From: Bacteroidota bacterium
GTDB lineage: Bacteria > Bacteroidota > Ignavibacteria > UBA10030
Length of the DNA: 64,000 nt
NCBI GenBank assembly: GCA_040880975.1
Contig: JBBEEC010000029.1
Location: 31,054-95,053 of the forward strand
Reading direction: 5' to 3'
The notes beneath the pieces were generated by a model. It saw nothing but the letters and a program-made list of their open reading frames with translations, was not told the DNA's origin and did not search any database. The stretch's first letter is position 1, and every line of letters starts with the position of its first letter. Both the position numbers and the translations under genes were made by a program. This document shows positions 7,705 through 42,802 of this stretch, piece after piece.

Positions 7705-8700
7705 ATGAAAACAACTGTCCTCGGTGCTGGAAGTTGGGGCACAACGCTTGCCCTTGTCCTGTTGGAAAACGGGCACGACGTCAATTTATGGACCTACAAA
7801 GCCGCCCAGGCGCAACGGATGATCGAGAAACACGAGAATCCGGATTTCCTTCCAGGTATTTTTCTTCCTCCCCAACTCAATATCATGACGGACCTGGAAC
7901 GCTCAGCTGTCGACCGGGACCTCATCGTTGCCGCTGTTCCCTCCCAGTTCCTTCGCTCCGTTGTTGAGAGGATTGCGGACCTCGATCTCAAAAAGACCAT
8001 CATCTGCAATGTAGCCAAGGGGATCGAGAACGATACGCTCATGACGATGTCGGAAGTGCTTCTGGATGTCCTGAAGCATGAAAAGAAGGAAAACATCGCC
8101 ATCCTGTCGGGGCCAAGTCATGCCGAAGAGGTTTGCAAAAAAATGCCGACGGCCATCGTCTCGTCCGCCTACCGCATGAAGGCGGCAAAGGTCGTCCAGG
8201 ATGCCTTTATGACGCCGTATTTTCGCGTGTATGTGAATGAAGATATTCGAGGAGTCGAGCTTGGCGGGGCCATCAAGAATGTCATCGCAATCGGCGCCGG
8301 CATCAGCGACGGAGCGGGGTTCGGAGATAACACCAAGGCCGCGATCATGACTCGGGGCGTGTACGAGGTGACGCGGCTCGGAGTGAAAATGGGTGCACAG
8401 CCCAGAACATTCGCCGGACTGTCGGGGATCGGCGACCTGATCGTCACGTGTATGAGCCGCCATAGCCGCAATCGGTATGTCGGAGAGCAAATCGGCAAAG
8501 GACGCCCGCTTGATGCCATTCTGAAGGAAATGCTCATGGTGGCGGAGGGTGTTGCATCAACCCGTTCCGTGCGTGACCTCGCGAAGAAGCATCACGTGGA
8601 AATGCCGATCGTGGAAGCAGTGCACGAAATGCTCTTCGAGGGCAAGAACGCCCATAGGTCAATGTCCGAACTGATGACCAGAGACGCAAAAGGGGAATAG
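7705..8700 (+). CDS. gpsA: NAD(P)H-dependent glycerol-3-phosphate dehydrogenase
   Basis: N-terminal VLGAGSWGTTLA Rossmann motif. The 331-aa protein sits beside plsY as in many bacteria. Confidence 0.88.
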   Translation: MKTTVLGAGSWGTTLALVLLENGHDVNLWTYKAAQAQRMIEKHENPDFLPGIFLPPQLNIMTDLERSAVDRDLIVAAVPSQFLRSVVERIADLDLKKTIICNVAKGIENDTLMTMSEVLLDVLKHEKKENIAILSGPSHAEEVCKKMPTAIVSSAYRMKAAKVVQDAFMTPYFRVYVNEDIRGVELGGAIKNVIAIGAGISDGAGFGDNTKAAIMTRGVYEVTRLGVKMGAQPRTFAGLSGIGDLIVTCMSRHSRNRYVGEQIGKGRPLDAILKEMLMVAEGVASTRSVRDLAKKHHVEMPIVEAVHEMLFEGKNAHRSMSELMTRDAKGE

Positions 8701-8808
8701 GTTCAAAGTTCAAAGTTCAAGGTTTAAGGTTCAAGGTTCAAGGTTCAAGGTTCAAGGTTTAAGGTTCAAGGTTCAAGGTTTAAGGTTCAAAGTTCAAGCT
8801 TCACACTT
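8701..8808. repeat. tandem heptanucleotide repeat (GTTCAAG/GTTTAAG/GTTCAAA) x ~15
   Basis: Read directly from the sequence immediately after the gpsA stop. Confidence 0.9.
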
Positions 8809-8817
8809 CCAGGTTTC

Positions 8818-8985
8818 GCAGTTGAGTCCCTCCCAGACTGACATCTGACTTCCGACTTCCGACCTCCGACCTCTGACTTCCGACCTCCCCGAAAACAGAA
8901 TTCGGGGCAAGCCGACCTCTGACTTCCGACCTCCCCGAAAACAGAATTCGGGGCAAGCCGACTTCCGACCTCCAATTCGTCCCAC
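8818..8985. repeat. tandem heptamers (GACTTCC/GACCTCC/GACCTCT) plus 2 direct copies of a 46-bp unit containing hairpin ccccgaaaacagaattcgggg
   Basis: Direct repeat copies lie at ~8865-8910 and 8911-8956. The minus-strand ORFs here are translations of the repeats. Confidence 0.85.
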
Positions 8986-9564
8986 TCATTTAGGTTTTTC
9001 ATTTTCACCTCCGTCACTGCCTGTGGTGTTCTGTTTGCTCAACATTCTCAGGACCATGATCTTCGTCCTCAACGGCTTGCCAGCAAGTTCATAGGAATCT
9101 GTCCTGCCGGAAGACGATCCAATAATTCCCCCAACAACCAACCCACCGAGGGAGCCGAGGACCCCTCCCCCTATGGCCGAAAGAACACTACCGCTAGGTT
9201 CAAAACCAATGTCCAGTTGAGAGAAGTAGCCGTCGTTTTTTTTTGGTTTTGGCTTCTCGTAAGATGAAGCTCCGATCACGGCCCCGATCACTGCCCCGGC
9301 GGCGGCCCCGTAGGCAGCCCCGTAGGCAGCCCCCGTCCAGAAGTCGCCTTCTGAACGACGGAACACAAGTACCACCGCATCAATGGCAACGGAGTCAATC
9401 CCGTCCTTCGAAATCATGAGCATACCCTCGCTGACGTGAAGGATCGTATAGTCGTAGAGTGTATCGCCGTCGGAAAGGACGAGATTCCACGTTTTCTCGT
9501 CTCCTCTGGCCATCGAAAGGACTGCGAAGAGCAGGAACAGAGTTGCTTTAGTGAAGTGTGTCAT
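8986..9564 (-). CDS. hypothetical secreted/lipoprotein-like protein with glycine-zipper segment
   Basis: Signal peptide MTHFTKATLFLLFAVLSMARG. Contains GAAYGAAYGAAAGAVIGAVIGA and GGGVLGSLGGLVVGGIIG glycine-zipper motifs. The start is chosen at the internal Met of the 208-aa ORF. Confidence 0.5.
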   Translation of the reverse strand: MTHFTKATLFLLFAVLSMARGDEKTWNLVLSDGDTLYDYTILHVSEGMLMISKDGIDSVAIDAVVLVFRRSEGDFWTGAAYGAAYGAAAGAVIGAVIGASSYEKPKPKKNDGYFSQLDIGFEPSGSVLSAIGGGVLGSLGGLVVGGIIGSSSGRTDSYELAGKPLRTKIMVLRMLSKQNTTGSDGGENEKPK

Positions 9565-11592: not shown

Positions 11593-12891
11593 GTGATTCC
11601 GCGTTACACAAGGCCCGCGATGGGCCGCATCTGGGAAGACGAGAATCGATTCCGCATCTGGCTGGAAATCGAAGTGCTTGCGTGCGAGGCCCAGGCCGAA
11701 CTTGGTGTTATTCCAAAAGAAGCCGTTGCTGCGATCCGCAGTAAGGCCTCCTTCGATGCGAAACGTGTTCTCGAGATCGAAGAAGAGGTGAAGCACGACG
11801 TCATCGCGTTCCTGACGAATGTGGGCGAGTATGTTGGGCCCGAGTCGAGGTTCATACACCTCGGTATGACGTCATCCGACGTTCTCGACACCGCTCTTGC
11901 CGTGCAAATGAAGCAATCGGCAGAACTGCTTCTCGAGGATCTTGAAGGACTGAAGGGCGTTCTTGCCAGGCGGGCGAAAGAGCACAAATTCACGATGATG
12001 ATCGGCCGGACGCATGGTATCCATGCAGAACCGGTCACGTTCGGACTCAAACTGGCTCTTTGGTATGCAGAAACGCTTCGCAATATCGATCGGCTCAAAG
12101 CTGCATTGAAGACCATCTCCGTCGGACAGATCTCCGGCGCGGTTGGTACCTATGCGCATATCGATCCGAATGTCGAAGAACATGTGTGCAAAGCCCTCGG
12201 CTTGTCCCCGGCGCCTATTTCCACGCAGGTGCTTCAAAGGGACCGCCATGCGGAATTCATGAGCACGCTTGCAGTGGTCGGCAGCTCCCTTGAGAAATTC
12301 GCGACAGAAATCCGCCATTTGCAGAAGACAGAAGTGCTGGAAGTGGAGGAGTATTTTTCGAAGGGACAGAAGGGCTCCTCGGCAATGCCTCATAAACGGA
12401 ACCCCATCACCTGCGAGCGCATCGCCGGACTTTCACGAGTGCTCCGTGGAAATGCCATGGCGGCGATGGAAAACGTGGCGCTCTGGCATGAGCGCGATAT
12501 CACCCATTCCTCCGTCGAACGTGTGATCATTCCGGACAGCTGCATTCTTCTGGATTATATGCTGACCCAGCTCACGAAGATCATTGAACAACTGCTGGTT
12601 TATCCTGAGAACATGAAAAAGAATCTGGACAAAACGAGAGGATTGGTGTTTTCGCAATCCGTCCTGCTCGCATTGGCCAAAAAAGGGATGAAAAGGGAGG
12701 ATGCCTACAAAGTCGTCCAGGATCACGCGATGAGGGTGTGGGAGGATGAAAAGCTGAGCTTCGAAGAGAGGATCAAAGGAGATGGGGAGATCGTGAAGTT
12801 TCTGGATAAGAAAGAGTTGGAAGAGATTTTTGATTTGAGGAAGAATGTGAAGCACGTGGACGCGGTGTTTGAAAGATTGGGGTTGAGCTAG
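11593..12891 (+). CDS. purB: adenylosuccinate lyase
   Basis: Carries the fumarate-lyase signature KGSSAMPHKRNP. The 432-aa protein begins MIPRYTRPAMGRIW. Confidence 0.9.
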   Translation: MIPRYTRPAMGRIWEDENRFRIWLEIEVLACEAQAELGVIPKEAVAAIRSKASFDAKRVLEIEEEVKHDVIAFLTNVGEYVGPESRFIHLGMTSSDVLDTALAVQMKQSAELLLEDLEGLKGVLARRAKEHKFTMMIGRTHGIHAEPVTFGLKLALWYAETLRNIDRLKAALKTISVGQISGAVGTYAHIDPNVEEHVCKALGLSPAPISTQVLQRDRHAEFMSTLAVVGSSLEKFATEIRHLQKTEVLEVEEYFSKGQKGSSAMPHKRNPITCERIAGLSRVLRGNAMAAMENVALWHERDITHSSVERVIIPDSCILLDYMLTQLTKIIEQLLVYPENMKKNLDKTRGLVFSQSVLLALAKKGMKREDAYKVVQDHAMRVWEDEKLSFEERIKGDGEIVKFLDKKELEEIFDLRKNVKHVDAVFERLGLS

Positions 12892-13152
12892 GATTAACAA
12901 GCTCTGACCCCGACGGGGTCAAATATATTAGGTCGGGGCAACCTGTCCGCCTTTCTTATTGGCGGACGCCCCGACATTCAGAATCCAACCAGCATTCAAT
13001 ACCCTGAAGGGGTTATATATTTCTCCCCTTCGGGGAGAATTTGTGTTTGGTCCGTTGCGAAATCCGGGGGCGATGCCCCCGGCTAAAATATGATTCCCCT
13101 TCGGGGAATATTCGAATATTGAAAAACTGAACGCCAAGCCAGAGGCCATATC

Positions 13153-14637
13153 ATGCCCCGAAAATATCAAAATCTCATCAACGGCAAATGGGTCGATGCG
13201 AAGTCCGGCAAGACCTTCGAAAATCGCAACCCCGCCAATTGGGACGAGGTGCTTAGCACCTTTCCGCTTTCCGGCAAAGAGGACGTCGACGCGGCAGTAG
13301 CATCGGCACGGAAGGCGTTCGAATCCTGGCGGCTTGTGCCGGCACCGGGTCGCGGAGACATCCTCCGGAAGGTCGGCGATCTCATGACCGCGCACAAGGA
13401 TGACCTCGCAAAAACCATGACCAGGGAAATGGGCAAGGTGCTCCTTGAGACAAAAGGAGATGTGCAGGAAGGGATCGATACCGCGTACTATGCCGCGACG
13501 GAAGGACGGCGGCTCTTCGGGCACACTGTTCCATCCGAACTCCCGAACAAGTTCAACATGGCAATACGGGTGCCTATCGGCGTGGCGGGCATCATCACGC
13601 CGTGGAATTTTCCGATGGCCATCCCCACCTGGAAAATGTTCCCGGCCCTTGTCTGCGGCAATACCATCGTCTTCAAGCCGGCATCCGACACACCGGAAAC
13701 GGCAGCACGGCTCGTCGAGATCCTTATCGAAGCGGGAATACCCGAAGGCGTGGTCAACATCGTACACGGCGGAGGCAGCCAGGTCGGCATGGCGATCGTT
13801 GAACATTCGGATGTTGACCTCGTGAGCTTCACGGGTTCCACCGGAGTCGGCAAAAAGATCTCCGAAGTGGCATCGAAAACGCTGAAGCGCGTCTCACTGG
13901 AGCTCGGCGGCAAGAATGCCCAGATCGTCATGGACGATGCCAGGTTGGACCTCGCGCTCGAAGGTGTCCTCTGGGGCGCCTTTGGCACCACCGGACAGCG
14001 GTGCACCGCCACCAGCCGTCTTATTGTTCACGAGAAGGTCTATGACAAGTTCATGAGCATGCTCGTCGACAGAACAAAGAAACTTCGCCTCGGCGACGGA
14101 TTGCTGGGCACGACAGACGTCGGTCCGCTCGTGAACGAGAATCAGGTGGAAACCGTTGATGGCTACGTCAAGATTGGAACCGGCGAGGGCGCTCAGGTGC
14201 TTGCCGGTGGAAAAAGAGCCAACGGTGACGGACTGGGCAAGGGTTGGTTCTACGAACCGACGATCCTGGGCGGCGTTACTCCGACAATGCGCGTGGCGAC
14301 AGAGGAGATCTTCGGCCCCGTCCTGTCCGTCATCAAGGTGAAGAGCATTTCCGAGGCGATTCAGGTCTCAAACGGCACAAAATACGGCCTTTCTTCGTCG
14401 GTCTATACGCAGGATATCAATAGCGCCTACCAGGCGATCCGTGATATTAAGGCCGGAATAACGTATATTAATGCACCAACCATCGGGGCGGAAGCCCATA
14501 TGCCCTTCGGCGGTGTGAAGGAAACAGGCAACGGGCACAGAGAAGGCGGTTGGACAGTGTATGAGTTCTTCTCTGAGTGGAAAACGGTGTACGTGGACTA
14601 TAGCGGAAAACTCCAGAGAGCGCAGATAGACACTTAG
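13153..14637 (+). CDS. NAD-dependent aldehyde dehydrogenase (likely piperideine-6-carboxylate / aminoadipate-semialdehyde dehydrogenase)
   Basis: ALDH motifs VSLELGGKNA (Glu) and FGTTGQRCTATSRL (Cys) are present. The subfamily is inferred from the adjacent lat gene. Confidence 0.8.
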   Translation: MPRKYQNLINGKWVDAKSGKTFENRNPANWDEVLSTFPLSGKEDVDAAVASARKAFESWRLVPAPGRGDILRKVGDLMTAHKDDLAKTMTREMGKVLLETKGDVQEGIDTAYYAATEGRRLFGHTVPSELPNKFNMAIRVPIGVAGIITPWNFPMAIPTWKMFPALVCGNTIVFKPASDTPETAARLVEILIEAGIPEGVVNIVHGGGSQVGMAIVEHSDVDLVSFTGSTGVGKKISEVASKTLKRVSLELGGKNAQIVMDDARLDLALEGVLWGAFGTTGQRCTATSRLIVHEKVYDKFMSMLVDRTKKLRLGDGLLGTTDVGPLVNENQVETVDGYVKIGTGEGAQVLAGGKRANGDGLGKGWFYEPTILGGVTPTMRVATEEIFGPVLSVIKVKSISEAIQVSNGTKYGLSSSVYTQDINSAYQAIRDIKAGITYINAPTIGAEAHMPFGGVKETGNGHREGGWTVYEFFSEWKTVYVDYSGKLQRAQIDT

Positions 14638-14639
14638 AA

Positions 14640-14692
14640 TTGCCAATTGCCAATTTTCAATTGGAAATTGGCAATCGGAAATTGAAAATCCT
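14640..14692 (+). terminator. inverted repeat / hairpin of CAATTG-containing units downstream of ALDH
   Basis: ttgccaattgccaatttt / aattggaaattggcaa inverted repeat immediately after the stop codon. Confidence 0.45.
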
Positions 14693-14820
14693 CTTATGAC
14701 CGGACGCGTAATCTTCGTCATACAATTTTTCGAACACCAGGAATTCTTCTGAGGTGATCGATGGACCTTGTACCAATATCAACATCGATCATTTCACCCT
14801 TGGAACTCTTGGAGGTGTCT

Positions 14821-16243
14821 CATGTCCGGAACAATACTCGAACTGCACGACAAGAAATCCGCTTCTGAAAAGAAGAACGGACCCGCAGCGTTAGCAAAAC
14901 CTACGACCAAATCTCCCGTCAAGGTTCTCCCCACCGAGGTCCATTCCACGCTCTCAAAGCACATGCTGGTGGATGGCTTTGATCTTGTTGTTGACCTCAA
15001 ACGGTCGCAGGGATCCTATCTGTACGACTCCCGCTACAACAAGAAGTACCTCGATTTCTTCACGTTCTTTGCGTCCAGCTCAGTCGGAATGAACCATCCG
15101 AAGCTGACGGACCCGGCTTTCCTCGAAAAACTCGCTTACACGGCGGTAAACAAGACGTCGAACTCGGACGCCTATACGGTGGAAATGGCGGAGTTCGTGG
15201 AAACCTTCGCCCGCATTGCCATGCCCGACTATCTTCCGTACGTGTTCTTTGTGGACGGCGGAGGACTGGCGGTGGAGAATGCGATCAAGACCGCGTTCGA
15301 TTGGAAGGTTCGCAAGAATTTTGTCAGAGGATACACGGATGAACGGGGATGGCAGGTGATTCACTTTCGCAAAGCCTTCCACGGCCGTACCGGGTATACG
15401 CTTTCGTTGACCAATACCGATCCGGTCAAAACCAATTATTTTCCGAAATTCAAATGGCCGCGTGTTCACAACCCGGTCATAAAATTCCCGCTCAGCGGCA
15501 AGAATCTTGAAGATGTCAAAAAGGAAGAAAACGTTGCCCTCCAGCAGATCAAGCAGGCGGTCATCAGCAATCCCGATGACATCGCGGCGCTGATCATCGA
15601 GCCGATCCAGGGCGAAGGGGGAGATAATCACTTCCGTAAGGAATTCTTCGAAACCCTGCGGGCGATCTGTGATGAGCATGAGATCCTGCTGATCTTTGAC
15701 GAAGTGCAGACCGGCATCGGAATCACCGGCAAAATGTGGGCGCATGAATACTTCGTCAAGCCCGATATGGTCGCGTTTGGCAAGAAGACGCATATTTGCG
15801 GATTCATGTCGAGCACGCGGATCGATGACGTGATGGACAACGTGTTTCACAAGCCGAGCCGTATCAATTCAACGTTCGGCGGAAATCTCGTGGATATGGT
15901 TCGATTCGGACGCGTGTTGGAGATCATCGAAGAGGAAAAGCTTGTCGATCAAGCGAAGGAAACCGGAGTCCATTTGCAACAGAAACTGACAAAGCTGGAA
16001 GAGGAATTCCCAGGGCTCATCAGCAATACGCGCGGAAAAGGGTTGTTCTGCGCCATGGACCTCGACAGCGCTCAAAATCGCGATCAGCTCAGGAGTAAGA
16101 CGTATGAGGGCGGATTGATCCTCATCGGGTGCGGGGATCGGTCCATCAGATTCCGTCCGCCCTTGAATCTCAAGAAGTCAGAGGTTGACGAGGGGATCGG
16201 GATCATCACGAAAGCTCTGAAGGAAATTACCGCCGGCGAGTGA
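14821..16243 (+). CDS. lat: L-lysine 6-transaminase (class III aminotransferase)
   Basis: [17 protein letters not shown] is the LAT-type motif. [17 protein letters not shown] is the class-III aminotransferase motif. The ATG at 14821 (MSGTIL) is preferred over the upstream ORF start. Confidence 0.75.
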
Positions 16244-17103
16244 TGCCGGAAAGAACCATGGAGACACGCACGGAACACGGTCAGGATGCTCTTCTTCTGA
16301 ATCCAAAGCTCGTCCGCGATCTTCTGACGAAATTTCTCCGCGATGAAACATCAGCAGCGGGGTTTTCAAAGCTTGTGGTCGGGTTGTCCGGAGGCGTGGA
16401 TTCTGCCCTTGTGACAGCCTTGGCGGTAGAAGCCCTTGGGGCAAAGAACGTCCTGGCTCTCATCCTGCCGCACCGGATGAGCAATCCGCAGAGTGTGAGT
16501 GATGCGGCCATAGTGGCCAAATCCTTGGGCGTACGGACGGAAACCATTGATATTACGCCAATGGTGGATGCCTACTGCGAGGAGCACAAAGTGCGGGATA
16601 ACATGAGGCGTGGGAATGTCATGGCACGGGCGAGAATGATCGTTCTCTACGACCAGTCCGCCAAAGAGCAGGCGTTGGTGGTCGGTACGAGCAACAAAAC
16701 GGAGATCATGCTGGGGTACGGGACACTCCACGGGGATATGGCTTCTGCGTTGAATCCAATAGGGGATCTTTATAAAACCCAGGTGTGGCAGCTCGCCGAA
16801 GCAATGGGAACTCCGGAATCCATCGTACAAAAGAAGCCAAGTGCGGACTTGTGGAGGGGGCAGACGGACGAAGGGGAGATGGGATTTTCGTACAAAGATG
16901 TCGACCGCCTTCTCTATTATATGATCGATGAGAGAAGGAAGGATGAAGAACTGGTCAAACTCGGATTTTCCCGAGCTTTTATTGATCGCGTCAGAACGAT
17001 GATCCGTAAAAGCCAGTTCAAGCGCCGCCCGCCTGTGATCGCCAAAGTCTCCTACCGCACGGTCAATGTCGATTTCCGGTACGTGAGAGATTGGGGAATT
17101 TGA
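16240..17103 (+). CDS. nadE: NH3-dependent NAD+ synthetase
   Basis: PP-loop motif [13 protein letters not shown]. The 287-aa gene overlaps the lat stop. Confidence 0.88.
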
Positions 17104-17107
17104 TAAT

Positions 17108-17178
17108 TGCCAATTGACCCGCCCGAACGACCGTGATTGAACCATGAAGTTCGGTCGGGCGGGCAATTGGCAATTGGC
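17108..17178 (+). terminator. long imperfect inverted repeat (attgccaattgacccgcccgaacgacc ... ggtcgggcgggcaattggcaat) after nadE
   Basis: A ~20-bp GC-rich stem is seen directly, flanked by CAATTG heptamer-like repeats. Confidence 0.5.
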
Positions 17179-17180
17179 AA

Positions 17181-17870
17181 TTGAAAATCACCTTGCCTGG
17201 AACGCTCTACATAGTTTCCACCCCTATCGGTAATCTCGAAGACATCACCTACCGCGCCGTCAAGGTGCTTGGTGCCGTTGACCTCATCGCCGCCGAAGAT
17301 ACCCGCAAGACAAAGATCCTCCTCGACCACTACGGCATCAGCAAGCCGATGCTGAGCTACTTCAGCTACAACGAGAAACAGCGGACTCCCCAGCTCATTG
17401 AGCAATTGAAAGGCGGAAAGTCCATTGCGTTGGTCTCGGATGCCGGCACACCCGGGATCTCAGACCCGGCACACCGGATCGTCGTTGCGGCCCTTGCAGA
17501 TGCGATCCCGATCATCCCGATTCCCGGTCCCTCGGCGTTTCTTTCGGCCCTCATTGTCAGCGGGCTTCCGACCCATGGATTTGTTTTCGAGGGCTTCCTG
17601 CCGGTCAAGAAAGGCCGCAAGACGAAGCTGGAGGAGTTGAAGAACGAACGGCGCACGGTGGTTCTCTACGAGTCACCGCACCGCATCGTGAAAACTCTGA
17701 CGGAGATCGGAAGTACATTTGGCGAACGTCAGGTTGTTGTGGCAAGGGAACTGACGAAGAAGTTTGAAGAAATCGTGCGTGGCCCCCTTTCCTTTGTCCT
17801 CAAAGAGATAACATCGAAGCCCGCAAGGGGAGAGTACGTGTTGCTTGTTTCCGGAAACCAGGAACGCTAA
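17181..17870 (+). CDS. rsmI: 16S rRNA (cytidine1402-2'-O)-methyltransferase
   Basis: GTLYIVSTPIGNLEDITYRAVKVL is the RsmI N-terminal signature. The start is TTG at 17181 or 17193. Confidence 0.82.
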   Translation: MKITLPGTLYIVSTPIGNLEDITYRAVKVLGAVDLIAAEDTRKTKILLDHYGISKPMLSYFSYNEKQRTPQLIEQLKGGKSIALVSDAGTPGISDPAHRIVVAALADAIPIIPIPGPSAFLSALIVSGLPTHGFVFEGFLPVKKGRKTKLEELKNERRTVVLYESPHRIVKTLTEIGSTFGERQVVVARELTKKFEEIVRGPLSFVLKEITSKPARGEYVLLVSGNQER

Positions 17871-17925
17871 TGCCTGATGGAATCCCCTCGGAGGATCCTC
17901 TCTGGGGATTCCATCAGACCAGACA

Positions 17926-18567
17926 TCACTTCAACAGCATCATCGCCCTTCGAATCACAGTTTGGTTCCCTCCGGCTTCCTCCGCAAGAAGCTCATAGAA
18001 ATACATTCCGCTCGATTGCCTGCCAGCATCCCATAAAGCGCGGTGAGAACCTGCCGGCTGCCGGCCATCGACGAGGAGTCCAATTTCCCGGCCCAGGAGA
18101 TCGTAGATCCGGATCTGCACGGCGCTTTCGGCGGCAAGTTGATACTCGATGGTGGTCGTGGGGTTGAAAGGATTCGGATAATTCTGGAACAACTCAAAGG
18201 ACGTCGGCGGTGCGACGGAGATCAGAAGGTCCTTTTTCCAGGACATCCCTGACGCTGCGCGTACGGTCATCGAGATTCGGTGCTCCTGGCCGACGGAAGC
18301 GGATTGTTCGACCGAAAGAGAAAAGCGGGCACTGGCGATACGGCCGCCGCTGATTTGGCCTATGGTCCTGCTTTGCGGCTCTACCTGGAGCCATGGCGGT
18401 ACGTCCGTCGCGGTGACGGAGACGTCCTCCAGACTGAGAGTGGCGGAGTTTTCGATCGCAAATTCAAGGACATTGTTCCGAGAAGCGAACGGTAATTCAT
18501 GCACGGTCTGGGCAGATGAGCCGAGAGTGCAGAAAACGAAGAGGAAGAGAAAGAAAACGTAGTACAT
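17926..18567 (-). CDS. secreted protein with T9SS (Por) C-terminal sorting domain
   Basis: Signal peptide MYYVFFLFLFVFCTLGSSAQ. The C-terminus NYPNPFNPTTTIEYQL...IRIYDLLGREI...GMYFYEL...LLK is typical of the T9SS type A sorting domain. Confidence 0.75.
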   Translation of the reverse strand: MYYVFFLFLFVFCTLGSSAQTVHELPFASRNNVLEFAIENSATLSLEDVSVTATDVPPWLQVEPQSRTIGQISGGRIASARFSLSVEQSASVGQEHRISMTVRAASGMSWKKDLLISVAPPTSFELFQNYPNPFNPTTTIEYQLAAESAVQIRIYDLLGREIGLLVDGRQPAGSHRALWDAGRQSSGMYFYELLAEEAGGNQTVIRRAMMLLK

Positions 18568-19160
18568 AGATCCCCCACGAGGTGAGTGGTTGAAAGTGCG
18601 GGGGGTGGATGCTTACGATGGTAATAACTTTGGCAGAGAGTGTCAAGTGTGGGTGGTATCTCATTGAAAAAGAGAATCGCAGAGTCGCACCTGCCCGACT
18701 GTGGTTGCCCTAGAATTGGTCAGGCGGGGAGGCCGCAGATCCCAAAGGGACCACTTCGTGGGAATCGCAGAGTGTTCAACAAAAATTGGGGTAATCCTCT
18801 GCGTCACTCCGCGTCCTCTGCGTCTCTGCGTTGATCTTTATTCGGCCGCCCCTACGGGGCTTTTTCGGGTGTCGTGAGGCCTTGCTACCAGAAGGCCGTC
18901 CCTGACGGGACTTGTTGTGCTACACCGGATCACCGGCTCTCCTTACCCATCCTTTTTCGGTCGCCCGGTTGGCTTTCCATTCAGACTTAGCAGGCGCCTA
19001 AAAAAACGGTGAACAGCAAACAGTAAACAGGAAACAGTCCTTCTTTCTATGTCCACTTTTGATCCCATCACCCTTCATTTATCTGACGAAGTCCATTTCC
19101 TGTCAGACGAAGCCGTTTTGTGGCGTAGTCTGACGTGGACGTAGTCAGACCCTTTACTAC

Positions 19161-19214
19161 TTGACAACCACCCCAATTTCTCCTATATTAGCACTCACTC
19201 TCAACGAGTGCTAA
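19161..19214 (+). promoter_or_regulatory. groES promoter (TTGACA-N18-TATATT) overlapping a perfect CIRCE element TTAGCACTC-N9-GAGTGCTAA (HrcA operator, 19188-19214)
   Basis: The exact CIRCE consensus lies ~55 bp upstream of the groES start. The -35 is at 19161-19166 and the -10 at 19185-19190. Confidence 0.85.
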
Positions 19215-19270
19215 TCACCAGATGTCCTTACAAGTCTGTCAAAATCAATTATTTATAAGGAGTTGACGCT

Positions 19271-19567
19271 ATGGCATCTCTCAAGCCTTTGGCTGATCGC
19301 GTTGTGATCAAGCCGTCTCCAGCCGAGGAGAAAACAAAGGGTGGGATCATTGTTCCGGATACGGCGAAGGAAAAGCCGGTTTGGGGCGAGGTCGTTTCCG
19401 CCGGCCCGGGCCGTACCACCGATGAAGGAAAACACATCCCGATGGAAATCAAAGTCGGCGACAAGGTTCTGTACGGAAAATACTCCGGCACGGAGATCAC
19501 CATCGACGGTGAGGAATTGTTGATCATGCGTGAAAGCGACATCTTCGCGCTCATGCCAAAAAAGTAA
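19271..19567 (+). CDS. groES: co-chaperonin GroES
   Basis: The 98-aa protein reads [14 protein letters not shown]...[23 protein letters not shown]. Confidence 0.92.
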
Positions 19568-19584
19568 ACGGAAAAAGGAGCTAA

Positions 19585-21225
<1,641 letters not shown>

Positions 21226-22660
21226 GGCATCAAATTCGAAATTCGAATTTCGAAATTCGAATTTTACCTCACCGCTTCATCCAGGCAACTGGGTGGAGCG
21301 GTTTTTGTTTTTAGCACGCCACCTCTGGTCGGGAGCTCTGCTCCCCACTCATCCCCCCGCCACAAAACACGGCGGGCAAGCCCGCCAAAAATCGCGGCGG
21401 GCCCCGAAGGGGTCCCTTTGGGACAGGCCGTCCCCCTTCTCTCAAGAGAGAAGGGGGGGTGAGCACCACATCTGGTCGGGAGCTCTGTTCCCCACTCATC
21501 CCCCCGCCAAAAATCGCGGCGGGCCCCGAAGGGGTCCCTTTGGGACAGGCCAACCCGGGGGTGAGCACCAACTCTGGCCGGCTCTACTCCTCCTCGTTTC
21601 CATAGGCCAAAAAAAAACAAGGCATGTCATTCTGCCCGCCCCCGCCAGACCGCAGGCGGGCTGGCCGGCTGAAGTTTATTGAAGGCGGGCCGGGGAGTCC
21701 CGCCTTCCACAGCATTTCCAGGCGGGCGGGACGAAGAATCTGAACACCTCCGCTTAACAAAAGCTCGTATCGGCATAAAAGCTCGCTCATTATTCGTTGT
21801 CGGATTTTCTCACCCAACTCTGGTCGGGAGCTCTGCTCTCCACTCATCCCCCCCCGCCAAAAAACGGCGGGGCAGGCCTTCGGGAAAATTTCGGCCTCTT
21901 TCATCGCCCCGGGATACCTGTCCGCCTTTGGCGGAAATCCCGGGGCTAGATGACCTCATGTAGAGCACAATTCCCCTCCCCGATAAAAAGCATCGGGGCA
22001 GGAAAGGGGAATCCAAACCGTAAAACAGAAAACGACAAAGAACAAACTGAAATCAAACAGAGAGAAGAAAACACAAATAAACAGGGGGGGGTGGGATTTC
22101 TGAATAACAATTCCTTCACTGCGCGTGCCGTTTACTCGCCCCTAGCCCCCGAAATTTTGGCGGTGTGCGGTTGGTGACCTTTGGTGCGTTTAAGTCCCGG
22201 CACCGCCTTTTGCTTGAGTTTGCACCTCTCGCCGTGTGCCGGGACTTCGGCTAATCTCCGTTTTATCCTTGGCGGGGGGATATTATTTTGCGGTGTGTTT
22301 CCCCCTAATGGATATTCCATGGAGGGGTCCCTTCGGGAAAATTTCGGAAGAAAGTTCCCCCGCATCAATTCAAAATAGTGATTAAAGAGCGGGGTCCCGC
22401 TTCGCGGGATCTTTGCTACTTTTCCCGCTCTTTGGATCCCGTCATGAGCGGGATCCTGGAAGGCGGGACTCTTTTGAAGAGAAAGTAGGCCTGCGGCAGC
22501 AAAGAGTCGAGATTAATCCAACAGATCGGGCTTATTCCCTCTTGAACATCCTCATCCAAAGTAATTCGCCGAAAGCCCAGAGCCGATCAATGACGCCGGT
22601 ACTTCGTTACTCCACGAGTTAGGCGTCATTTGAGCCTGCGGGGGATAGAATAATGGGGAG
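21226..22660. repeat. ~1.4-kb non-coding repeat mosaic: AATTCGAA tandem repeats, ~100-145-bp tandem duplications (ctctggtcgggagctctgctccccactcatccccccgccaaaaa...), GTCCCTTTGGGAC-type hairpins, an A-rich ~190-bp element and a ~70-bp palindromic element (ctacttttcccgctctttggatcccg...cgggactcttttgaagagaaagtag)
   Basis: The same units recur at 23400-24200, 39560-40200 and 41990-42330. ORFs in this region are translations of the repeats. Confidence 0.8.
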
Positions 22661-22669
22661 TGTGTTACC

Positions 22670-22978
22670 CTACGAAAGCATCTGAGCAAGGTGTTTTCTT
22701 GAAGCGCCCAATGCCAGCAACGACCGAATTAGCAAATCAAGCGACACTGATGGATCGCCAGCTTCCATCTTTGCCACACGAGATTGGCTTGACTTCAATC
22801 GTCGGGCAAGTTCGTGTTGGGTCAGGTTCTTCTTTCGTCGCACCGCTTGGAGATTCTTGCTTAATGCCAACTTCAGTTCAATATAAGCAGCTTCTTCCTC
22901 TGAGAGATTCAGAAACTCCTGAACAGTTCCAAATTTCCAACCTTTGGCTTCAAGCCGACGGCGTTTTGCAGATTTCAT
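22670..22978 (-). CDS. higA: XRE-family HTH antitoxin (HigA-like)
   Basis: Contains the HTH NLTQHELARRLKSSQSRVAKMEAG. It lies 13 bp downstream of the toxin gene on the same strand. Confidence 0.7.
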   Translation of the reverse strand: MKSAKRRRLEAKGWKFGTVQEFLNLSEEEAAYIELKLALSKNLQAVRRKKNLTQHELARRLKSSQSRVAKMEAGDPSVSLDLLIRSLLALGASRKHLAQMLS

Positions 22979-22990
22979 ATTCTTGCTCCT

Positions 22991-23323
22991 TTACGTTGTA
23001 TCGTACATACGCAGACGCTGTTGACAGTTTCGAACTACTTCCTTCGGCGTCTTTTGAGTTTTCTTTTCAAAGATATCCACCACAAGGACTGCATTGTTAT
23101 CGATCCGATATACGATACGCCAGGTTGTCGTTTCATCCACAATCCGAAGTTCGTGGCAACGCTTACCAATCACTGGCATTGGACGTGACTGTGGTAACGA
23201 AAGCTTCTCCCCCATTTGCACCCGACGAAGCAGATAACCAGCTTCAATTCGTGCTTGGCGCGAGAACGGCGGTGTTTTTATTTCACCGTGGAGCCAACCA
23301 ATCTGCTTTGTCGATCTGTCCAT
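22991..23323 (-). CDS. higB: RelE/ParE-superfamily toxin, HigB/phage Gp49-like
   Basis: 110 aa. The motifs ...GKRCHELRIVDETTTWRIVYRIDNNAVLVVDIFEKKTQKTP fit the Gp49-like killer-protein family, which pairs with XRE antitoxins. Confidence 0.65.
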   Translation of the reverse strand: MDRSTKQIGWLHGEIKTPPFSRQARIEAGYLLRRVQMGEKLSLPQSRPMPVIGKRCHELRIVDETTTWRIVYRIDNNAVLVVDIFEKKTQKTPKEVVRNCQQRLRMYDTT

Positions 23324-23399
23324 GCGAGTATAAGATATGTCATTTCTGATATATAGTCAACACGGCGCAAACGAACGTCTAACACGCCCAATCCCGAAG

Positions 23400-24270
23400 G
23401 GATCCCTTCGGGACAACGACGCTCCCTCATTTTATAGGCGATGATGAAAATGATTGCTAGTGCCACTTCTTCTCTCCCGAGAGAAGGGGGGGTGAGCGCC
23501 ACATCTGGTCGGGAGCTCTGCGGTGGAACCTACGCCCACAAAGACATAGCGAAGGGGTCCCTTTGGGACAAGCCAACCCCTTCTCTCCCGAGAGAAGTGG
23601 GGGGTGAGCGGCACCACTGGTCGGATCTCATGTAGCGCGTGCCGTTTACTCGCCCCTAGCCCCCGAAATTTCGTCCTCTTTCATCGCCCCGGAATGAATT
23701 CCGGGGCTAGATTACCTCACGTAGAGCACAATTCCCCTAAAGGGGAATGGGCTTTCTGTCGACGGGACTTACTGCAGTGTGCTTTACCCATGCCCTTAGC
23801 CCCCGAAATCGCCGGCTGTGTGCGGTGGGCGGCTTAATCGTGCGTTTAATTCCGGCACCGTCCAATGGTCGAGTTTGTGATCTCGCCGTGTGCCGGAATT
23901 TCGGCCTATCTCCGTACTATCTAAGGTGCGGTGGGGATGGTTTGACAACGTGCGTTGCGATTTCGGCGCCCTTTTCTTTTCGTCCATTTTCTTTTGGGCG
24001 GGCAAAAGAAAATGGACTCGCCGAAGGCCCAGAGCCGATCAATGACTCTCCCTTGCATCTTTGCCTTCCCCAAGCTACCTTTCCCCAGCCAGCGGTAACC
24101 CAACGGGGACCAATTCCACATCACGTGAACATTTTCAGGGGCGTGGAATGGTCTTTTGAAGGGTGAGAACGGGAGGAACGCGGCAGAATGAACCTCTGGA
24201 TTCGGGTTTCCGATGAAGGAGGTTTTTGTGTTATGGAGTAGTTGAGTAGTGGAGTATGTGAGTATTTGAG
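23400..24270. repeat. repeat mosaic sharing units with 21226-22660 and 39560-40200, including palindrome ccattttcttttgggcgggcaaaagaaaatgg and GAGTAGT-like heptamers at 24230-24280
   Basis: There are several direct matches to other loci: gcgtgccgtttactcgcccctagcccccgaaatt, tagagcacaattcccctaaaggggaat and cccagagccgatcaatgac. Confidence 0.75.
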
Positions 24271-24306
24271 TAATTGTTGGCTTGGCCTTTCCTAATTGGA
24301 GGCAAA

Positions 24307-24618
24307 ATGGACACATCAACGTGGTTTTTATTGGCAGTCATGTCATTCTCTTGTGGATTCTTCACAACGCACGTTGCCAAGCTCAAAGGGTATGAACCAA
24401 TCGGTTGGTTTTTTGCGGGCTTTTTCTTTTGGATAATAGGCTTGATTGCTGTTATTGGGGTGCCCGAAAAACAAAGGGTTGTGCTCTCGAAGAAAGATGA
24501 AGAATGGATTTGTATGATCTGTAATTATGGAAGACGTGGCCGGGGCCTCTGTGGGATCTGCGGCAATGAACCAAAGTTTATTACTTTACCAAAACCGAGT
24601 CACTCTGCGGCCAGGTGA
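24307..24618 (+). CDS. small membrane protein with C-terminal zinc-ribbon (CxxC...CxxC)
   Basis: An SD-like GGAGG precedes the ATG at 24307. There are two hydrophobic helices, then CMICNYGRRGRGLCGICG. Confidence 0.45.
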   Translation: MDTSTWFLLAVMSFSCGFFTTHVAKLKGYEPIGWFFAGFFFWIIGLIAVIGVPEKQRVVLSKKDEEWICMICNYGRRGRGLCGICGNEPKFITLPKPSHSAAR

Positions 24619-24801
24619 CCGGCCGCTAAGCCGACGAAACCATTCACTATCTTCAGAATCTGGCCATCACCGCTTAAACAAGGCCCGCATAGGCATGAAA
24701 GCTTGAAAAACTTGGCAAAGGTCACCGGCGGCGATTCAAAAGCGGGGTTCTTCGTAATTCGAAGATTGTGCGCCGCCACCGGCTTAGAATGAGATAAGTA
24801 A

Positions 24802-25437
24802 ATGACCCAACCGACACCTCCGACAGAGTCCCAACCAAGCGAGCGGCAGAAAAAGAGATATGAGGTTTCGCTCGATACGCGGAAGTTTGAGATCGATCTG
24901 TTTTGGAGGCGTGCTCTCTTCTTCTGGGGGTTCATTGCCTCTGCCTTCGTAGCTTATGCAGCGTTTTCGAAGGATAGACCCGACGGTCCAACGATTTCTC
25001 TGATAATTTCTCTGTTTGGTCTGGTGTGCTCATTCAGTTGGACTCTTGTAAATCGTGGATCCAAATACTGGCAAGAGAACTGGGAATCGCAAGTTGACAA
25101 AGATGAAGATGCCGTCACAGGCCCGCTATTCAAACAACCCGCCGAACGTCAAAAGAAAGGTTGGTTTGGTGCTCAGAAGTTTTCAGTGAGCAAGCTTGCA
25201 ATTGCCTTAAGCGACTATGTTACGCTCGTTTGGGCTCTACTAATACTCCGCAGTGTGAGAGAAATACCCACAGTCAAGCGATTCTTGGAGGCGGACTGTT
25301 GGCCGTTTCATCTTCAAGACGATACCCTTGTTCTTGTCTTTCTTGTGTTCACGCTCGCTTGGTTGATATTTGTATTTATAAAGAGTGGAACAACAGAACG
25401 AACGCCGGGCGCTGGCGGCGCATCAACAACAGTCTAA
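24802..25437 (+). CDS. hypothetical multi-TM protein (possible SLATT-like 2TM effector; unverified)
   Basis: 211 aa. TM helices ALFFWGFIASAFVAYAAF and TISLIISLFGLVCSFSWTLV are followed by KYWQENWE and a C-terminal helix LVLVFLVFTLAWLIFVFI. Confidence 0.5.
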   Translation: MTQPTPPTESQPSERQKKRYEVSLDTRKFEIDLFWRRALFFWGFIASAFVAYAAFSKDRPDGPTISLIISLFGLVCSFSWTLVNRGSKYWQENWESQVDKDEDAVTGPLFKQPAERQKKGWFGAQKFSVSKLAIALSDYVTLVWALLILRSVREIPTVKRFLEADCWPFHLQDDTLVLVFLVFTLAWLIFVFIKSGTTERTPGAGGASTTV

Positions 25438-25448
25438 CCGAGGAGCCT

Positions 25449-26087
25449 TTGCCCGATACACTTTATCAGGAATTTGAGGATCCGACGGAGGCTTTTGCGC
25501 GCGAGCCCCGTGCCTTTTGCTACGATCTTGCCATAGGTCTCATCAATCAAGCTAAAGCGGAAGCAACCCTATCATGGTACACTCAGACAGAGAGCGTCAA
25601 GGCAATTATCCTGCTCCTCTATTGTTGGAATTTTGCAGCACGCGAAACGAAGAGACTCACATTTGATTCCGTTCGAAATGTACTCAGCACAAATGAACAG
25701 AATCTGCGATTATTGGAGCAGTACACACTACTAACGTTCGATGAGACATCTGAACTACCAATCCAAACCGTTTTCTCCCAATTCCGTGAGGCATTTGGAC
25801 AAACTGGAGCGACTAAAGCCTTGAGCTTGCTCAATCCCAGACTTTTTCTAATGTGGGATACGCGCATACGAGCCAGACTCCGAAGGGAACTTGTCCGCGG
25901 GCTCGACAACGGGCAAACCGAAGACCAATACATTCTGTTCTTGCGCAAAGTGCGCGATTATGCTGCTCAATATAATTTCCAGCAGAGGCTCGCACCCAAT
26001 GCAATCCTAGCGAAGAAAATCGATGAGTATCACTATGTCAGGATTGTGATGGCGCAAAGTGTTTTACACGTGCGGGATACCGCCTAA
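25449..26087 (+). CDS. hypothetical protein (start uncertain; TTG 12 nt after previous stop)
   Basis: The long ORF 25161-26087 overlaps the upstream gene. The first plausible start after its stop is TTG 25449. No recognisable motifs. Confidence 0.35.
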   Translation: MPDTLYQEFEDPTEAFAREPRAFCYDLAIGLINQAKAEATLSWYTQTESVKAIILLLYCWNFAARETKRLTFDSVRNVLSTNEQNLRLLEQYTLLTFDETSELPIQTVFSQFREAFGQTGATKALSLLNPRLFLMWDTRIRARLRRELVRGLDNGQTEDQYILFLRKVRDYAAQYNFQQRLAPNAILAKKIDEYHYVRIVMAQSVLHVRDTA

Positions 26088-26170
26088 CAGGCCGCACAAC
26101 GACGTGTGCTCACTTGAAATTGCAAAAATTAAGCTGTGTTAGGAATAACAATGGGAAGCGACGTTCTTGA

Positions 26171-26926
26171 TTGCCGAAAAGATCTATGAATTCAGATTGG
26201 CGTAGTCTATTGCCAAAAGAACTCGGCCCACTGCCATTCGACGGTGTGCTCACCAGAACGGAAGCCAACGGGTCAATTGATGCTCCCGTTACAGTGCTCG
26301 GAGTTTATCCCGCAGCAGTGCAGTGGCGTCATTTTGTTCGTGATGGAGTCAGGTTGAATTTGCCATCGAAAGTCGAAGAGCACTCTTTCGACCCCCTGTC
26401 CAAGTCAGGAAGCGACCTGGACAAACTCTACTTGCAACCTTTAGGTCTTTCTCGCGGGCATATTCTAGCGGTAGATTTAATGCCGTACTTCTTCGCGAAC
26501 ACTGCGAAGGATTCAAAGAGTCACCGCTCGATGTGGGATAATGTGCGGGACTATACCCGAATTACAGGTCGGAAAACTGCGATCGAACCAAGACCGCCAG
26601 AGGATAAACTCCTGCAAAGGTGTTGGTCGTTACCAGGCAATCAATCCCGTCTTCAAGAATATATTGCGCGAAAATCAGCTCGACTTCTTTTCACGCTTGG
26701 CAGAGAAGCAGCTGCATATGTTCGAGGACATAACCGTGCGATTGATGGACAACAGTATCTTTATTCCAAACCCAAAACGCTCGACCTTTTCGACAACTCT
26801 ATTCTCACCGTTCATTTTGTTCATCCAGGGAATCTTCAACGTTCCAATAACGGGAAGTGGAAAACAACCCACATCGATTGGTGCATAGAATCAGGCCGCG
26901 GATTTGTCAAGTCAGTTTTAGGATGA
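26171..26926 (+). CDS. hypothetical protein with uracil-DNA-glycosylase-superfamily-like motifs
   Basis: VTVLGVYPAA resembles UDG motif A (beta-strand + GxxPx, as in GQDPY/GEAPG). ILTVHFVHPGNL resembles motif B (HPSP) near the C-terminus. The ~190-aa spacing fits a UDG fold. Confidence 0.4.
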   Translation: MPKRSMNSDWRSLLPKELGPLPFDGVLTRTEANGSIDAPVTVLGVYPAAVQWRHFVRDGVRLNLPSKVEEHSFDPLSKSGSDLDKLYLQPLGLSRGHILAVDLMPYFFANTAKDSKSHRSMWDNVRDYTRITGRKTAIEPRPPEDKLLQRCWSLPGNQSRLQEYIARKSARLLFTLGREAAAYVRGHNRAIDGQQYLYSKPKTLDLFDNSILTVHFVHPGNLQRSNNGKWKTTHIDWCIESGRGFVKSVLG

Positions 26927-27078
26927 CGAACCCCCCGACACACGTACGCGAGCTGCGCCGACCGGTGTAAAAAAGGCAGACGACAGGCTCTTGTTGGTTC
27001 GCACCGCAATACGCCCGACGTTTGGTACCATGCCCCGCGAGAACTTGTCTTGCTGAACCGACTGGACGGAGAGTGCAA

Positions 27079-27687
27079 ATGATATCACCGACTCCTCAGA
27101 ATATTCCAAATGAAACCACCGTGCAGGATCTATCAAACCACTACCTGCTATCGTCGCTGCACAGTAGGTCGGCGTGGATATATTGCCCGACTCGACAAGA
27201 GGAGATCCGACTAGGTTATGACGCCTCACTCCAAAACGGGAAGACCGTCCTGCTTCAATACAAATCGCTTAGCTATGCGGGACGATATCTCGTTTCAATT
27301 CGTCTTGACCAGAGACAATTAGCGACTCTGCTTACCAATTTTCCCCAACGGACCACTCCGTATCTCTATTATGGGTTTTGCGACTACCGGTCTTATCGAG
27401 AATTAGACAACGATTTTCTGACAGTGGGCTCTCCAGAATTCTTTAGGCACATGTTGTTCATTGACATCCATTCTCTCGCACCGAATACGCATACTATCCG
27501 TCGTCACAACGATGGAAGCATGACCGGCTTCCCGAGCCAGCAGCAGTTGATTCCAGTGCGAGGACCGAGGATTGCTCAGGGAATCAGAACTTGCACGATT
27601 GGTACGCCAAATAGCAAGAATATGCTTCGGACCCTTCGAGACCGTATTCGAGGATTCACATTGTCAGTGTTGCGTTATGTCCCCTAG
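27079..27687 (+). CDS. hypothetical protein
   Basis: Internal Met (MISPTPQNIP) of the 221-aa ORF. No recognisable motifs. It is co-directional with neighbours. Confidence 0.4.
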   Translation: MISPTPQNIPNETTVQDLSNHYLLSSLHSRSAWIYCPTRQEEIRLGYDASLQNGKTVLLQYKSLSYAGRYLVSIRLDQRQLATLLTNFPQRTTPYLYYGFCDYRSYRELDNDFLTVGSPEFFRHMLFIDIHSLAPNTHTIRRHNDGSMTGFPSQQQLIPVRGPRIAQGIRTCTIGTPNSKNMLRTLRDRIRGFTLSVLRYVP

Positions 27688-27956
27688 AAATTGGTAACAC
27701 ATCAGGGTCCGGGAACATGGGCCTTCGCGCGCGGCACGAGCACCTAACAGCCGCAAAAACGGCGGTCACAACTGTGGAACAAACCAATGCATGCTGTTAC
27801 TCACGACCTAGATTTGCGGCGGAACGGAACAAGGTTTTTTTCCAGACCCTAGAGGGTGGCCCCGCGAGGTTAAGGCCTCTTCCTACTCCCAAATCAGCCT
27901 GATTTGTGTTACCTTTGGTTTGCACCCCCACGCATTCAAATCCAGACAAACAGTAA

Positions 27957-31289: not shown

Positions 31290-31296
31290 ATCAAGA

Positions 31297-37160: not shown

Positions 37161-37374
37161 TGGATAGCGAGGGAACCATCGCATTTCGCCTATTGAGTTT
37201 CGCACAGGTGATGGTACCGCAAATAGGGGAAAAGGGCTTCATATCTCGGTGGCAACAATGCCGATGTCACCGAGCGGCTTTGTCCTGAGTGCCAGCGTGG
37301 GATGCCGGGGATAGGGTAGTGGATATGATGGGACTCAATAGTACAAATCGAGAGATCGACCGGATTGTGCACAT

Positions 37375-40700: not shown

Positions 40701-40711
40701 CGAGGATATCA

Positions 40712-42790: not shown

Positions 42791-42802
42791 CCAGGAGGAC
42801 CC

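Follow-up and report, generated by a model that had tools for sequence, protein, structure and literature searches.

We analysed a stretch of 64,000 nucleotides of DNA (the window) from Bacteroidota bacterium (Ignavibacteria, UBA10030; GenBank assembly GCA_040880975.1, contig JBBEEC010000029.1, positions 31,054 to 95,053 of the forward strand), in which many spacers between genes carry tandem arrays of heptanucleotides. The longest array, of 15 copies, lies in a 285-bp spacer at 8701-8985. Convergent genes stand on either side of this spacer: gpsA on the plus strand, with its stop codon at 8698-8700, and a minus-strand gene (8986-9564) for a small Gly-zipper lipoprotein. The gene map used throughout is our own call based on open reading frames (ORFs), partly checked against called genes. 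Relatives of DnaG and GpsA were all found in metagenome-assembled genomes (MAGs) of Ignavibacteria, Ignavibacteriales or Bacteroidota, and an exact-protein look-up with GroEL matched no record.

Apart from a unique 36-nt linker (8804-8839), the spacer is taken up throughout by repeats. Next to gpsA lies a direct (GGTTCAA)x15 array at 8699-8803, which Tandem Repeats Finder (TRF) reported as AGGTTCA x15.0 with 88% matches. Its 5′ edge is the gpsA stop codon (TAG followed by GTTCAAA), it includes the variant units GTTCAAA and GTTTAAG, and its 3′ edge is degenerate. The original prediction had placed GTTCAAG x15 at 8701-8808; the 15 copies were recovered, within somewhat different bounds. Beyond the linker is a direct (GACYTCY)x7 array at 8840-8888 (GGARGTC on the minus strand; repeat family D7), within which TRF recorded GACCTCC x6 at 8847-8888. 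It runs into a 46-nt composite unit repeated 2.3 times at 8866-8973 (TRF; repeat family D18), each copy consisting of three GACYTCY heptamers, the hairpin CCCCGAAAACAGAATTCGGGG and CAAG. The hairpin occurs at 8887-8907 and 8933-8953 (two matches versus 0 expected in the hairpin search), and the composite repeat stops 12 nt short of the stop codon of the lipoprotein gene. Units of the GACTTCC/GACCTCC kind had been predicted for the whole of 8818-8985; they are present from 8840 onward, but the preceding part belongs to the linker. No structure was predicted for the GGTTCAA array (fold z = -0.46) or for the GACYTCY x7 array (z = 0.05). Scanning of 8500-9200 revealed no promoter or terminator site within the spacer, the only terminator-like match (9012-9028) being inside the adjoining gene.

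A period of 7 prevailed among tandem repeats of the window. When arrays of at least three copies were counted, TRF detected 12 at period 7 (longest 15 copies) versus 8 for all other periods pooled, which within the window agrees with the expected peak at 7. A strict scan of periods 4-15 yielded four arrays at period 7, one at period 14 and none elsewhere, and in 20 order-3 Markov shuffles the same scan found 0 period-7 arrays. Eight arrays (344 nt) were found at period 7 by a lenient scan, which gave 0-1 for each other period. Self-match within intergenic DNA was maximal at lags 7 (0.285) and 14 (0.282) versus a level of about 0.258, and coding DNA showed period 3 only. Arrays were present in 8 of the 28 spacers of at least 40 nt. 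As had been proposed, they are non-coding: no array was detected within any ORF of the window except for the tail of dnaG (last ~18 codons), and arrays are confined to non-ORF DNA, since 7 is not divisible by 3. The occurrence of several unit types was also confirmed. At least seven were recognized by TRF (GGTTCAA, GACYTCC, AATTGCC, AAATTCG, CGAAATC, CGAACTT, AAACAGT, CAAATCC), many of which differ by only 1-2 substitutions, and gradients between units were seen within single arrays. A core T(T/C)C(G/A)A (TTCAA, TTCGA, TCCGA) is common to most period-7 units of the window, and several units consist of a palindromic hexamer with one base added (TTCGAA+N, CAATTG+N). Rfam models gave 0 matches at the gathering threshold in the window, and 0 tRNAs were found there. 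GGTTCAA, TTCGAA and CGAAATCC presumably resemble the tRNA T-arm; we make no claim from this.

The arrays had been thought to be a lineage-specific signature. This was not supported by a comparison sample of 740 kb around dnaG in 45 genomes of diverse phyla, where period 7 was the commonest, with 36 of 81 arrays of at least three copies, and Omnitrophota loci were especially rich. The preference for 7 nt is a general bacterial property. Array density was approximately 4-fold higher in the window (about 0.19 per kb) than in the 45-locus sample (0.05 per kb). In metagenomes, (GGTTYAA)x4 was detected in at least 120 contigs with GC content of 0.34-0.71, and true GGTTCAA arrays in at least 79; eukaryotic contigs with TTTAGGG-type telomeres, which were caught via the degenerate Y of the pattern, were excluded. 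Many contigs among the listed GGTTYAA matches bear further heptamer arrays too. In the metagenome contigs L054 (18 period-7 arrays in 6 kb) and L065 (22 in 13 kb), arrays are far denser than in the window, and their units are many (AACATAG, AACATTG, AACCTAG, AACGTTC and others). Viral contigs contained x4 arrays of GGTTCAA (11), GACCTCC (7), TAACTGA (32) and a composition-matched permutation of GGTTCAA (5). Any heptamer can form arrays, since the permutation does so too. The idea that GGTTCAA is a special, selected unit was rejected as unproven, given that the permutation reached about half its frequency and that TAACTGA was commoner. We also asked whether solitary GGTTCAA arrays have a strand-specific role in RNA; their orientation to the flanking gene was unbiased (25:23) among the metagenome matches listed.

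Strains and sister species provide a record of how such arrays change. Sister species were collected via GpsA homologues. In L228 (92% GpsA identity), the nearest relative, a degenerate array of about five GGTTYMA units begins exactly at the gpsA stop codon (TAA followed by GGTTTAA AGTTCCG GGTTCCA TGTTTCA GGTTCCA). No array is present at this position in L230 (87%) or L234 (80%). The 15 copies of GGTTCAA arose specifically in the window species, by expansion of a ~5-unit array such as that of L228. Four population samples of the 87% species (L230) contained 197 substitution columns in 16.6 kb, and the sole internal indel longer than 1 nt in this region was one 7-nt unit (CTGTAAA) inside an array (L230:16119-16125). 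Spacers that flank fdx in relatives carry different units, including NNNCAAT, ATCANNN, CTACTGA and the period-8 TGAGNNNN, found 3′ of fdx in L007, and carry none where the genes abut.

Closer to the window, Logan contig L050 (run SRR27977658) was 100% identical over 12466-19932, arrays included. Contigs L049 (45844-47913) and L051 (49724-61524) of GCA_040901785.1, a second strain, showed about 99.6% identity. The 47414-47521 array had unchanged length and one substitution in L049, and no indel was found at 50084-50127 in L051. As regards the comparison of copy numbers suggested by the original prediction, one 7-nt polymorphism was seen in the sister species, and three arrays were equal in the two strains of the window species. 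The coding region of dnaG (45844-47400) was about 4.6% divergent from L049, with an additional 9-nt indel at 45953-45961, and is probably a recombined tract. We considered whether the lower divergence of the array than of dnaG in L049 reflects constraint; this was rejected, as the remaining genome is also about 99.6% identical and dnaG is the outlier.

Our interpretation, to which we assign a probability of about 0.7, is that these are heptanucleotide simple-sequence arrays, of the kind known as short tandemly repeated repetitive (STRR) sequences or long simple sequence repeats (SSRs), amplified in spacers by slippage or unequal exchange. A short seed in a non-coding spacer would be amplified and trimmed by whole 7-nt units, a step partly shown and partly inferred. 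This could proceed by slipped-strand mispairing during replication or repair, or by unequal exchange. Point mutations would generate variant units, which may themselves be amplified afterwards. The arrays occupy spacers from the stop codon onwards and survive only outside ORFs. Slippage during replication or repair had been suggested at the outset, and the 7-nt indel in the sister species, the degenerate edges and the expansion from about 5 to 15 units make it a plausible generator. The preference for 7 nt itself is not accounted for by this mechanism.

Folding predictions divide the arrays into two structural classes: direct arrays predicted to be unstructured (GGTTCAA, GACYTCY) and inverted or palindromic arrays with predicted stems of 15-40 bp. 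Hairpin arrays of the window and relatives had z values from -3.7 to -6.7. On the plus strand of the window, palindromic AATTGCC x2-3 followed by AATTGGM x3-4 (TRF) lies directly 3′ of an aldehyde dehydrogenase stop codon at 14638-14689 (-19.9 kcal/mol, z = -3.98). The spacer between nadE and the TP_methylase gene (17104-17183, plus strand) contains AATTGCC x2 (17104-17116), a REP-like GC hairpin (17118-17163) and GGCAATT x3 (17162-17183), which together fold as one long hairpin (-44.4 kcal/mol, z = -6.43). CCAATTG arrays had been noted at 14640-14690 and 17108-17180, and both proved to have period 7. A long imperfect hairpin with a 5′ arm of GAAATYC-type units and a 3′ arm of GRATTTC units lies between fdx and the geranylgeranyl-reductase (GGR) gene (47754-47870, plus strand; -37 kcal/mol, z = -3.74). 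The fourth case in the window is the self-complementary (AAATTCG)x4.3, or TTCGAA+A, at 21232-21264 on the plus strand, 6 nt past the groEL stop codon (TRF, fold). It had been described as 8-mers at 21226-21262, and its period is actually 7; a canonical terminator follows at about 21271-21312.

Hairpins recur at orthologous spacers. The nadE-TP_methylase spacer has one in four species, with arms of CAATTGS in the window and L228, GGTTTCA/TGAAACC in L230 (z = -6.7) and GCAGAAT-type units in L234. The window shares the fdx-GGR hairpin with L004 and L017, and one compensatory pair was seen. At gpsA, the L228 array pairs as 5′ arm with (ACCTTAA)x3.4 as 3′ arm in a hairpin (z = -4.2), whereas the x15 array of the window has no partner arm. 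No T-run follows the array hairpins at 17104-17183 and 47754-47870, and TTTTT after the stem was seen in L004 alone; the combination of GC-rich stem-loop and U-tract that defines an intrinsic terminator was found neither in these array stems of the window nor within 8701-8985. Hairpins thus persist at corresponding spacers although their units are replaced, and the stems are probably maintained as REP-like stem-loops acting at RNA 3′ ends or between cistrons, or in DNA. In addition, the REP-like GC hairpin (CCCGCCCGAMCGAMC-loop-GKTCGKTCGGGCGGG) is dispersed, with copies at 17118-17163, 40537-40583 and L228 7567-7613 that have conserved stems and different loops; two of these three copies lie inside CAATTG heptamer arrays, in different spacers in the window species and L228.

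Pairs of inverted arrays were polar. An inverted partner within 400 nt was found for 12 of 76 metagenome GGTTCAA arrays among the matches listed (loci L077, L089, L103, L105, L112, L114, L120, L121, L122, L126, L128 and L138), always 3′ of the GGTTCAA arm (12:0), and for 0 of the control unit. This asymmetry is real because the arrangement reads identically on both strands. Loops of these pairs are mostly unrelated in sequence (except for L128 and L138), and the arms usually begin a few nt from the stop codons of convergent genes. For pairs of other units, the 5′ arm had more G than C in 14 and more C than G in 3, the CAATTG and GAAATCC hairpins of the window being exceptions. Stop codons were rejected as a cause of polarity: (TTGAACC)n has TGA in all frames and (GGTTCAA)n has none, which would favour the opposite arrangement. 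A rule that arrays following stop codons are G-rich in the sense strand also failed within the window, where cases are split about 4 to 4. It is conceivable, although we consider it rather unlikely, that pairs of the form 5′-(GGTTCAA)n-loop-(TTGAACC)m-3′, in which the G-rich arm leads on either strand and which begin near convergent stop codons, represent a widespread undescribed class of stem-loop. Such an element would be a self-assembling, bidirectional 3′ end or terminator without a U-tract. Its arms would be built by slippage, and selection on the RNA, or on a polar DNA-binding factor, would preserve their orientation and pairing as the sequence drifts.

The remaining arrays of the window are distributed as follows. 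The array at 47414-47521 (plus strand, TRF), which grades from CGAAATC through CGAACTT to CAAACTT, spans the last ~18 codons of dnaG and stops 3 nt before the fdx ATG, and a GAACTTC/TTCGAAC array entering the last dnaG codons had been correctly predicted here. At 47419-47471 the dnaG frame stays open for about 18 codons of CGAAATC units (...VNSKSEIQNPKQENQNPKF), as it does in strain L049, and the DnaG C-terminus of relatives is located about 20 residues earlier than that of the window. TRF further detected (AAACAGT)x5 at 19004-19038, 233 nt upstream of groES, and (CAAATCC)x3.7 at 41766-41791. A degenerate AAACAGA-type array at 39783-39874 (D14, TRF) lies within a 92-nt module duplicated at 22003-22094 (93% identity). 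With regard to GACTTCC/GACCTCC units, the positions 40310-40330 and 40600-40690 given in the original prediction correspond to period-7 arrays, namely GACTTCT x2 + GACCTCC at 40317-40339 (TRF, D7) and (CTTCCGA/CCTCGGA)x7 with a 14-nt super-period at 40640-40688 (TRF), 23 nt beyond the stop codon of a minus-strand HicA-like gene. A third position, 42680-42760, has just two 2-unit patches that fall under the TRF threshold. Several other arrays that had been listed as heptamers have longer periods. CTCTGCG-core arrays of four copies at 18795-18831 (TRF period 9, motif map; inverted CGCAGAG copies nearby at 18678 and 18766) and at 49389-49426 (TRF) conserve a 7-nt core, but 1-3 nt variable spacers give periods of 8-10. 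The CACAGAG-core array at 50084-50127 (x5, TRF) has periods of 9-10, and the GAGTAGT-like array is (GAGTAGTT)x5 at 24236-24276, with period 8 (TRF).

CTCTGCG- and CACAGAG-core arrays border a BrnT/BrnA-like toxin-antitoxin cassette (49505-50070), with the 49389 array to its left and the 50084 array, inverted relative to it, to its right. Together with a 238-nt duplication (49005-49242 = 50169-50406, 97% identical), the cassette lies in a 1.4-kb spacer (49005-50460) that measures about 90 nt in L004 and L017. Two regions, 21300-24300 and 39250-42800, are mosaics in which small GC hairpin modules (such as CGCCCCTACGGGGC, GGGTCCCTTTGGGAC and CCCCGCCAAAAATCGCGGCGGG) alternate with arrays of heptamers and with toxin-antitoxin genes (HigB/HigA-like at 22670-23323, HicAB-like at 40712-41327 and Phd/ParE-like at 42803-43406); the 3′ end of a glyoxalase-like gene is also present there three times. 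An island of low GC content (0.47-0.49, compared with 0.54 for the rest) at about 24000-38000 is probably a defence island. Its products are a helicase of the PLD+SNF2 kind (27957-31289), a methyltransferase of the Eco57I/MmeI type (31297-35325) and an ATPase of the SMC/AAA type (35322-37160).

Bacterial heptamer repeats are said to have been on record since 1990, and reportedly were shown in 2007 to be the commonest class of long SSRs. The STRR sequences of heterocystous cyanobacteria, with units CCCCAGT, TTGGTCA and CAACAGT, were reportedly described by Mazel et al. in 1990. The arrays of the window resemble them in having head-to-tail 7-nt units, several types per genome and intergenic location, and differ in that they occur in an Ignavibacteriales-type Bacteroidota and that many arrays in this lineage are hairpin arms. 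No tandem CCCCAGT, TTGGTCA or CAACAGT was present in the 64-kb window; AAACAGT x5 at 19004 is one substitution from STRR3. Cyanobacterial STRR repeats are also mentioned in the literature on other heptamers (PMC4692102). As summarized in two later papers, Mrázek, Guo and Shah (2007) found period 7 to be the most abundant among long SSRs of 5-11 nt, in non-coding DNA, and proposed slippage (PMC4679880, PMC4692102). The same period preference, non-coding placement and slippage fit the window and the 45-genome sample; as far as those summaries go, the class is a statistical category without defined function, to which the window adds high density and hairpin architecture. TAACTGA direct repeats, for which a protein-binding role was proposed, occur in Beggiatoaceae, Cyanobacteria and some Bacteroidetes (MacGregor 2015, PMC4679880). 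They are similar in that arrays are intergenic and frequently within a few nt of a start codon, heptamers are mixed in Bacteroidetes and contigs end inside arrays; however, one unit dominates there and many are present in the window. TAACTGA itself had 0 occurrences in the window, and L008 is the only relative in which CTACTGA/CAACTGA units precede a start codon. Similarities to the GGGAATC and GGGGAYT heptamers of Xanthomonas and Nostoc (Rehm et al. 2015, PMC4692102) include intergenic location, turnover of length and sequence at given gene pairs among closely related species, and convergent inverted pairs. Those units are G-rich and G-quadruplex-capable, whereas units of the window have no G-runs.

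Two better-known systems are more distant. Repetitive extragenic palindromic (REP) sequences and bacterial interspersed mosaic elements (BIMEs) of enterobacteria are one conserved ~35-nt palindrome family, mobilised by REP-associated tyrosine transposases (RAYTs). The hairpin arrays may resemble them in forming stable stem-loops without a U-tract after stop codons and between cistrons, but array stems here are locally amplified heptamers whose sequence differs by locus. These stems do not constitute one dispersed palindrome family; the separate GC hairpin, with its three copies, does. Contingency loci of Haemophilus and Neisseria are perfect tracts of 1-5 nt units in ORFs or promoters of surface and restriction-modification genes. 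They share short tandem repeats altering by whole units with the arrays described here, which by comparison are 7-nt, imperfect and located between stop codons of housekeeping genes; apart from the dnaG tail, none is a tract in an ORF or between promoter elements, and spacer 8701-8985 has no promoter-like site. The arrays thus belong to the known class of bacterial heptanucleotide microsatellites, and only hairpin architecture and polarity exceed earlier descriptions.

Several observations weigh against amplification by slippage or exchange as a full explanation. Arrays at 47414-47521, 47757-47800 and 50084-50127 are equal in length in the second strain (~99.6% identity) and hence are not hypermutable at that scale. 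The CTCTGCG/CACAGAG arrays, with a constant 7-nt core and variable spacers, are unlike pure slippage products, and GAATCC-type arms are conserved between species at 67% DnaG identity. The 12:0 polarity of inverted GGTTCAA/TTGAACC pairs is not predicted by a symmetric mutational process. A function of hairpin arrays is only inferred, and their stems lack a U-tract. In addition, all short-read contigs that reach spacer 8701-8985 end within it, at 8737 or about 8933 (L001-L003 inside the x15 array), so that the copy number of exactly 15 is not independently confirmed, every such contig ending in the x15 array or the 46-nt repeat; array edges are nevertheless identical in three other assemblies. 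Those breaks at 8737 and ~8933 could raise the suspicion that arrays were made or inflated by mis-assembly of low-complexity reads. With the edges recovered three times, arrays at 14638-19038, 47414-47870 and 50084-50127 recurring in independent contigs and the same architecture displayed by relatives, an artefact is scarcely credible. Phase variation of adjacent genes, put forward in the original prediction, would require copy-number changes to turn genes on or off. Tandem repeats are slippage-prone, a 7-nt polymorphism was found in the sister species and one array overlaps the 3′ end of dnaG. However, the main array is enclosed by the stop codons of two convergent genes, the repeats are interrupted (88% matches in the x15 array), arrays are found neither between promoter elements nor, that overlap excepted, within ORFs, the neighbours are housekeeping genes (gpsA, groEL, dnaG, nadE) and three arrays showed no length difference between strains, all of which makes a contingency switch very improbable.

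Some of the same features would be explained differently if the arrays were functional cis-elements, in line with the protein-binding arrays that the original prediction had offered as one option. Their units would then be bound repeatedly by a protein that recognises RNA or DNA, such as S1, a cold-shock protein or a CsrA-type regulator (as MacGregor suggested for TAACTGA), which would adjust how flanking genes are transcribed or translated or how stable their mRNA is. Arrays directly adjoin start and stop codons (several begin at a stop codon, and another stops 3 nt short of the fdx ATG), the CTCTGCG and CACAGAG cores are conserved despite variable spacing, GAAATCC units are kept 3′ of fdx in three species, and GGTTCAA recurs across many unrelated contigs. 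Reporter data on Nostoc heptamer repeats, as outlined in a preprint (bioRxiv 10.1101/2022.06.06.494920), point in the same direction. These features have to be set against at least seven different units within 64 kb, different units at orthologous spacers of relatives, the random orientation of GGTTCAA to genes (25:23), the formation of arrays by an arbitrary permuted heptamer and the lack of a candidate binder at hand, and we regard a general regulatory role as unlikely. Footprints or terminal repeats of small mobile elements, either REP-like or resembling miniature inverted-repeat transposable elements, with a 7-bp target duplication or reiterated subterminal repeats, appear distinctly improbable. 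The 12:0 polarity is as expected of terminal inverted repeats, the array-containing 92-nt module (D14) is duplicated, the BrnT/BrnA cassette is bordered by inverted arrays and the 238-nt duplication, and the hairpin at 42683-42750 has the direct repeat TCTGACCTT on both flanks. The GC hairpin also occupies CAATTG arrays at different spacers (window 17118-17163; L228 7567-7613), but its third copy (40537-40583) lies outside any CAATTG array. Furthermore, loops between inverted GGTTCAA arms are unrelated, L128 and L138 excepted, no transposase was linked to arrays in the 64 kb, where no systematic search for a RAYT gene was made, and arrays of at least 15 units with smooth unit gradients better fit slippage. 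Amplification of heptamers in spacers by slippage or unequal exchange remains the reading that we favour.

In this study, we describe a new lineage with high density of heptamer arrays. In practical terms, such arrays break short-read MAG assemblies exactly at gene ends. Our analysis also provides direct evidence for gain and loss of whole units, and traces how one array was born and expanded among sister species. Many arrays are predicted hairpin arms that persist at the same spacer while their units are replaced, with a polarity that would be unexpected under a neutral process.

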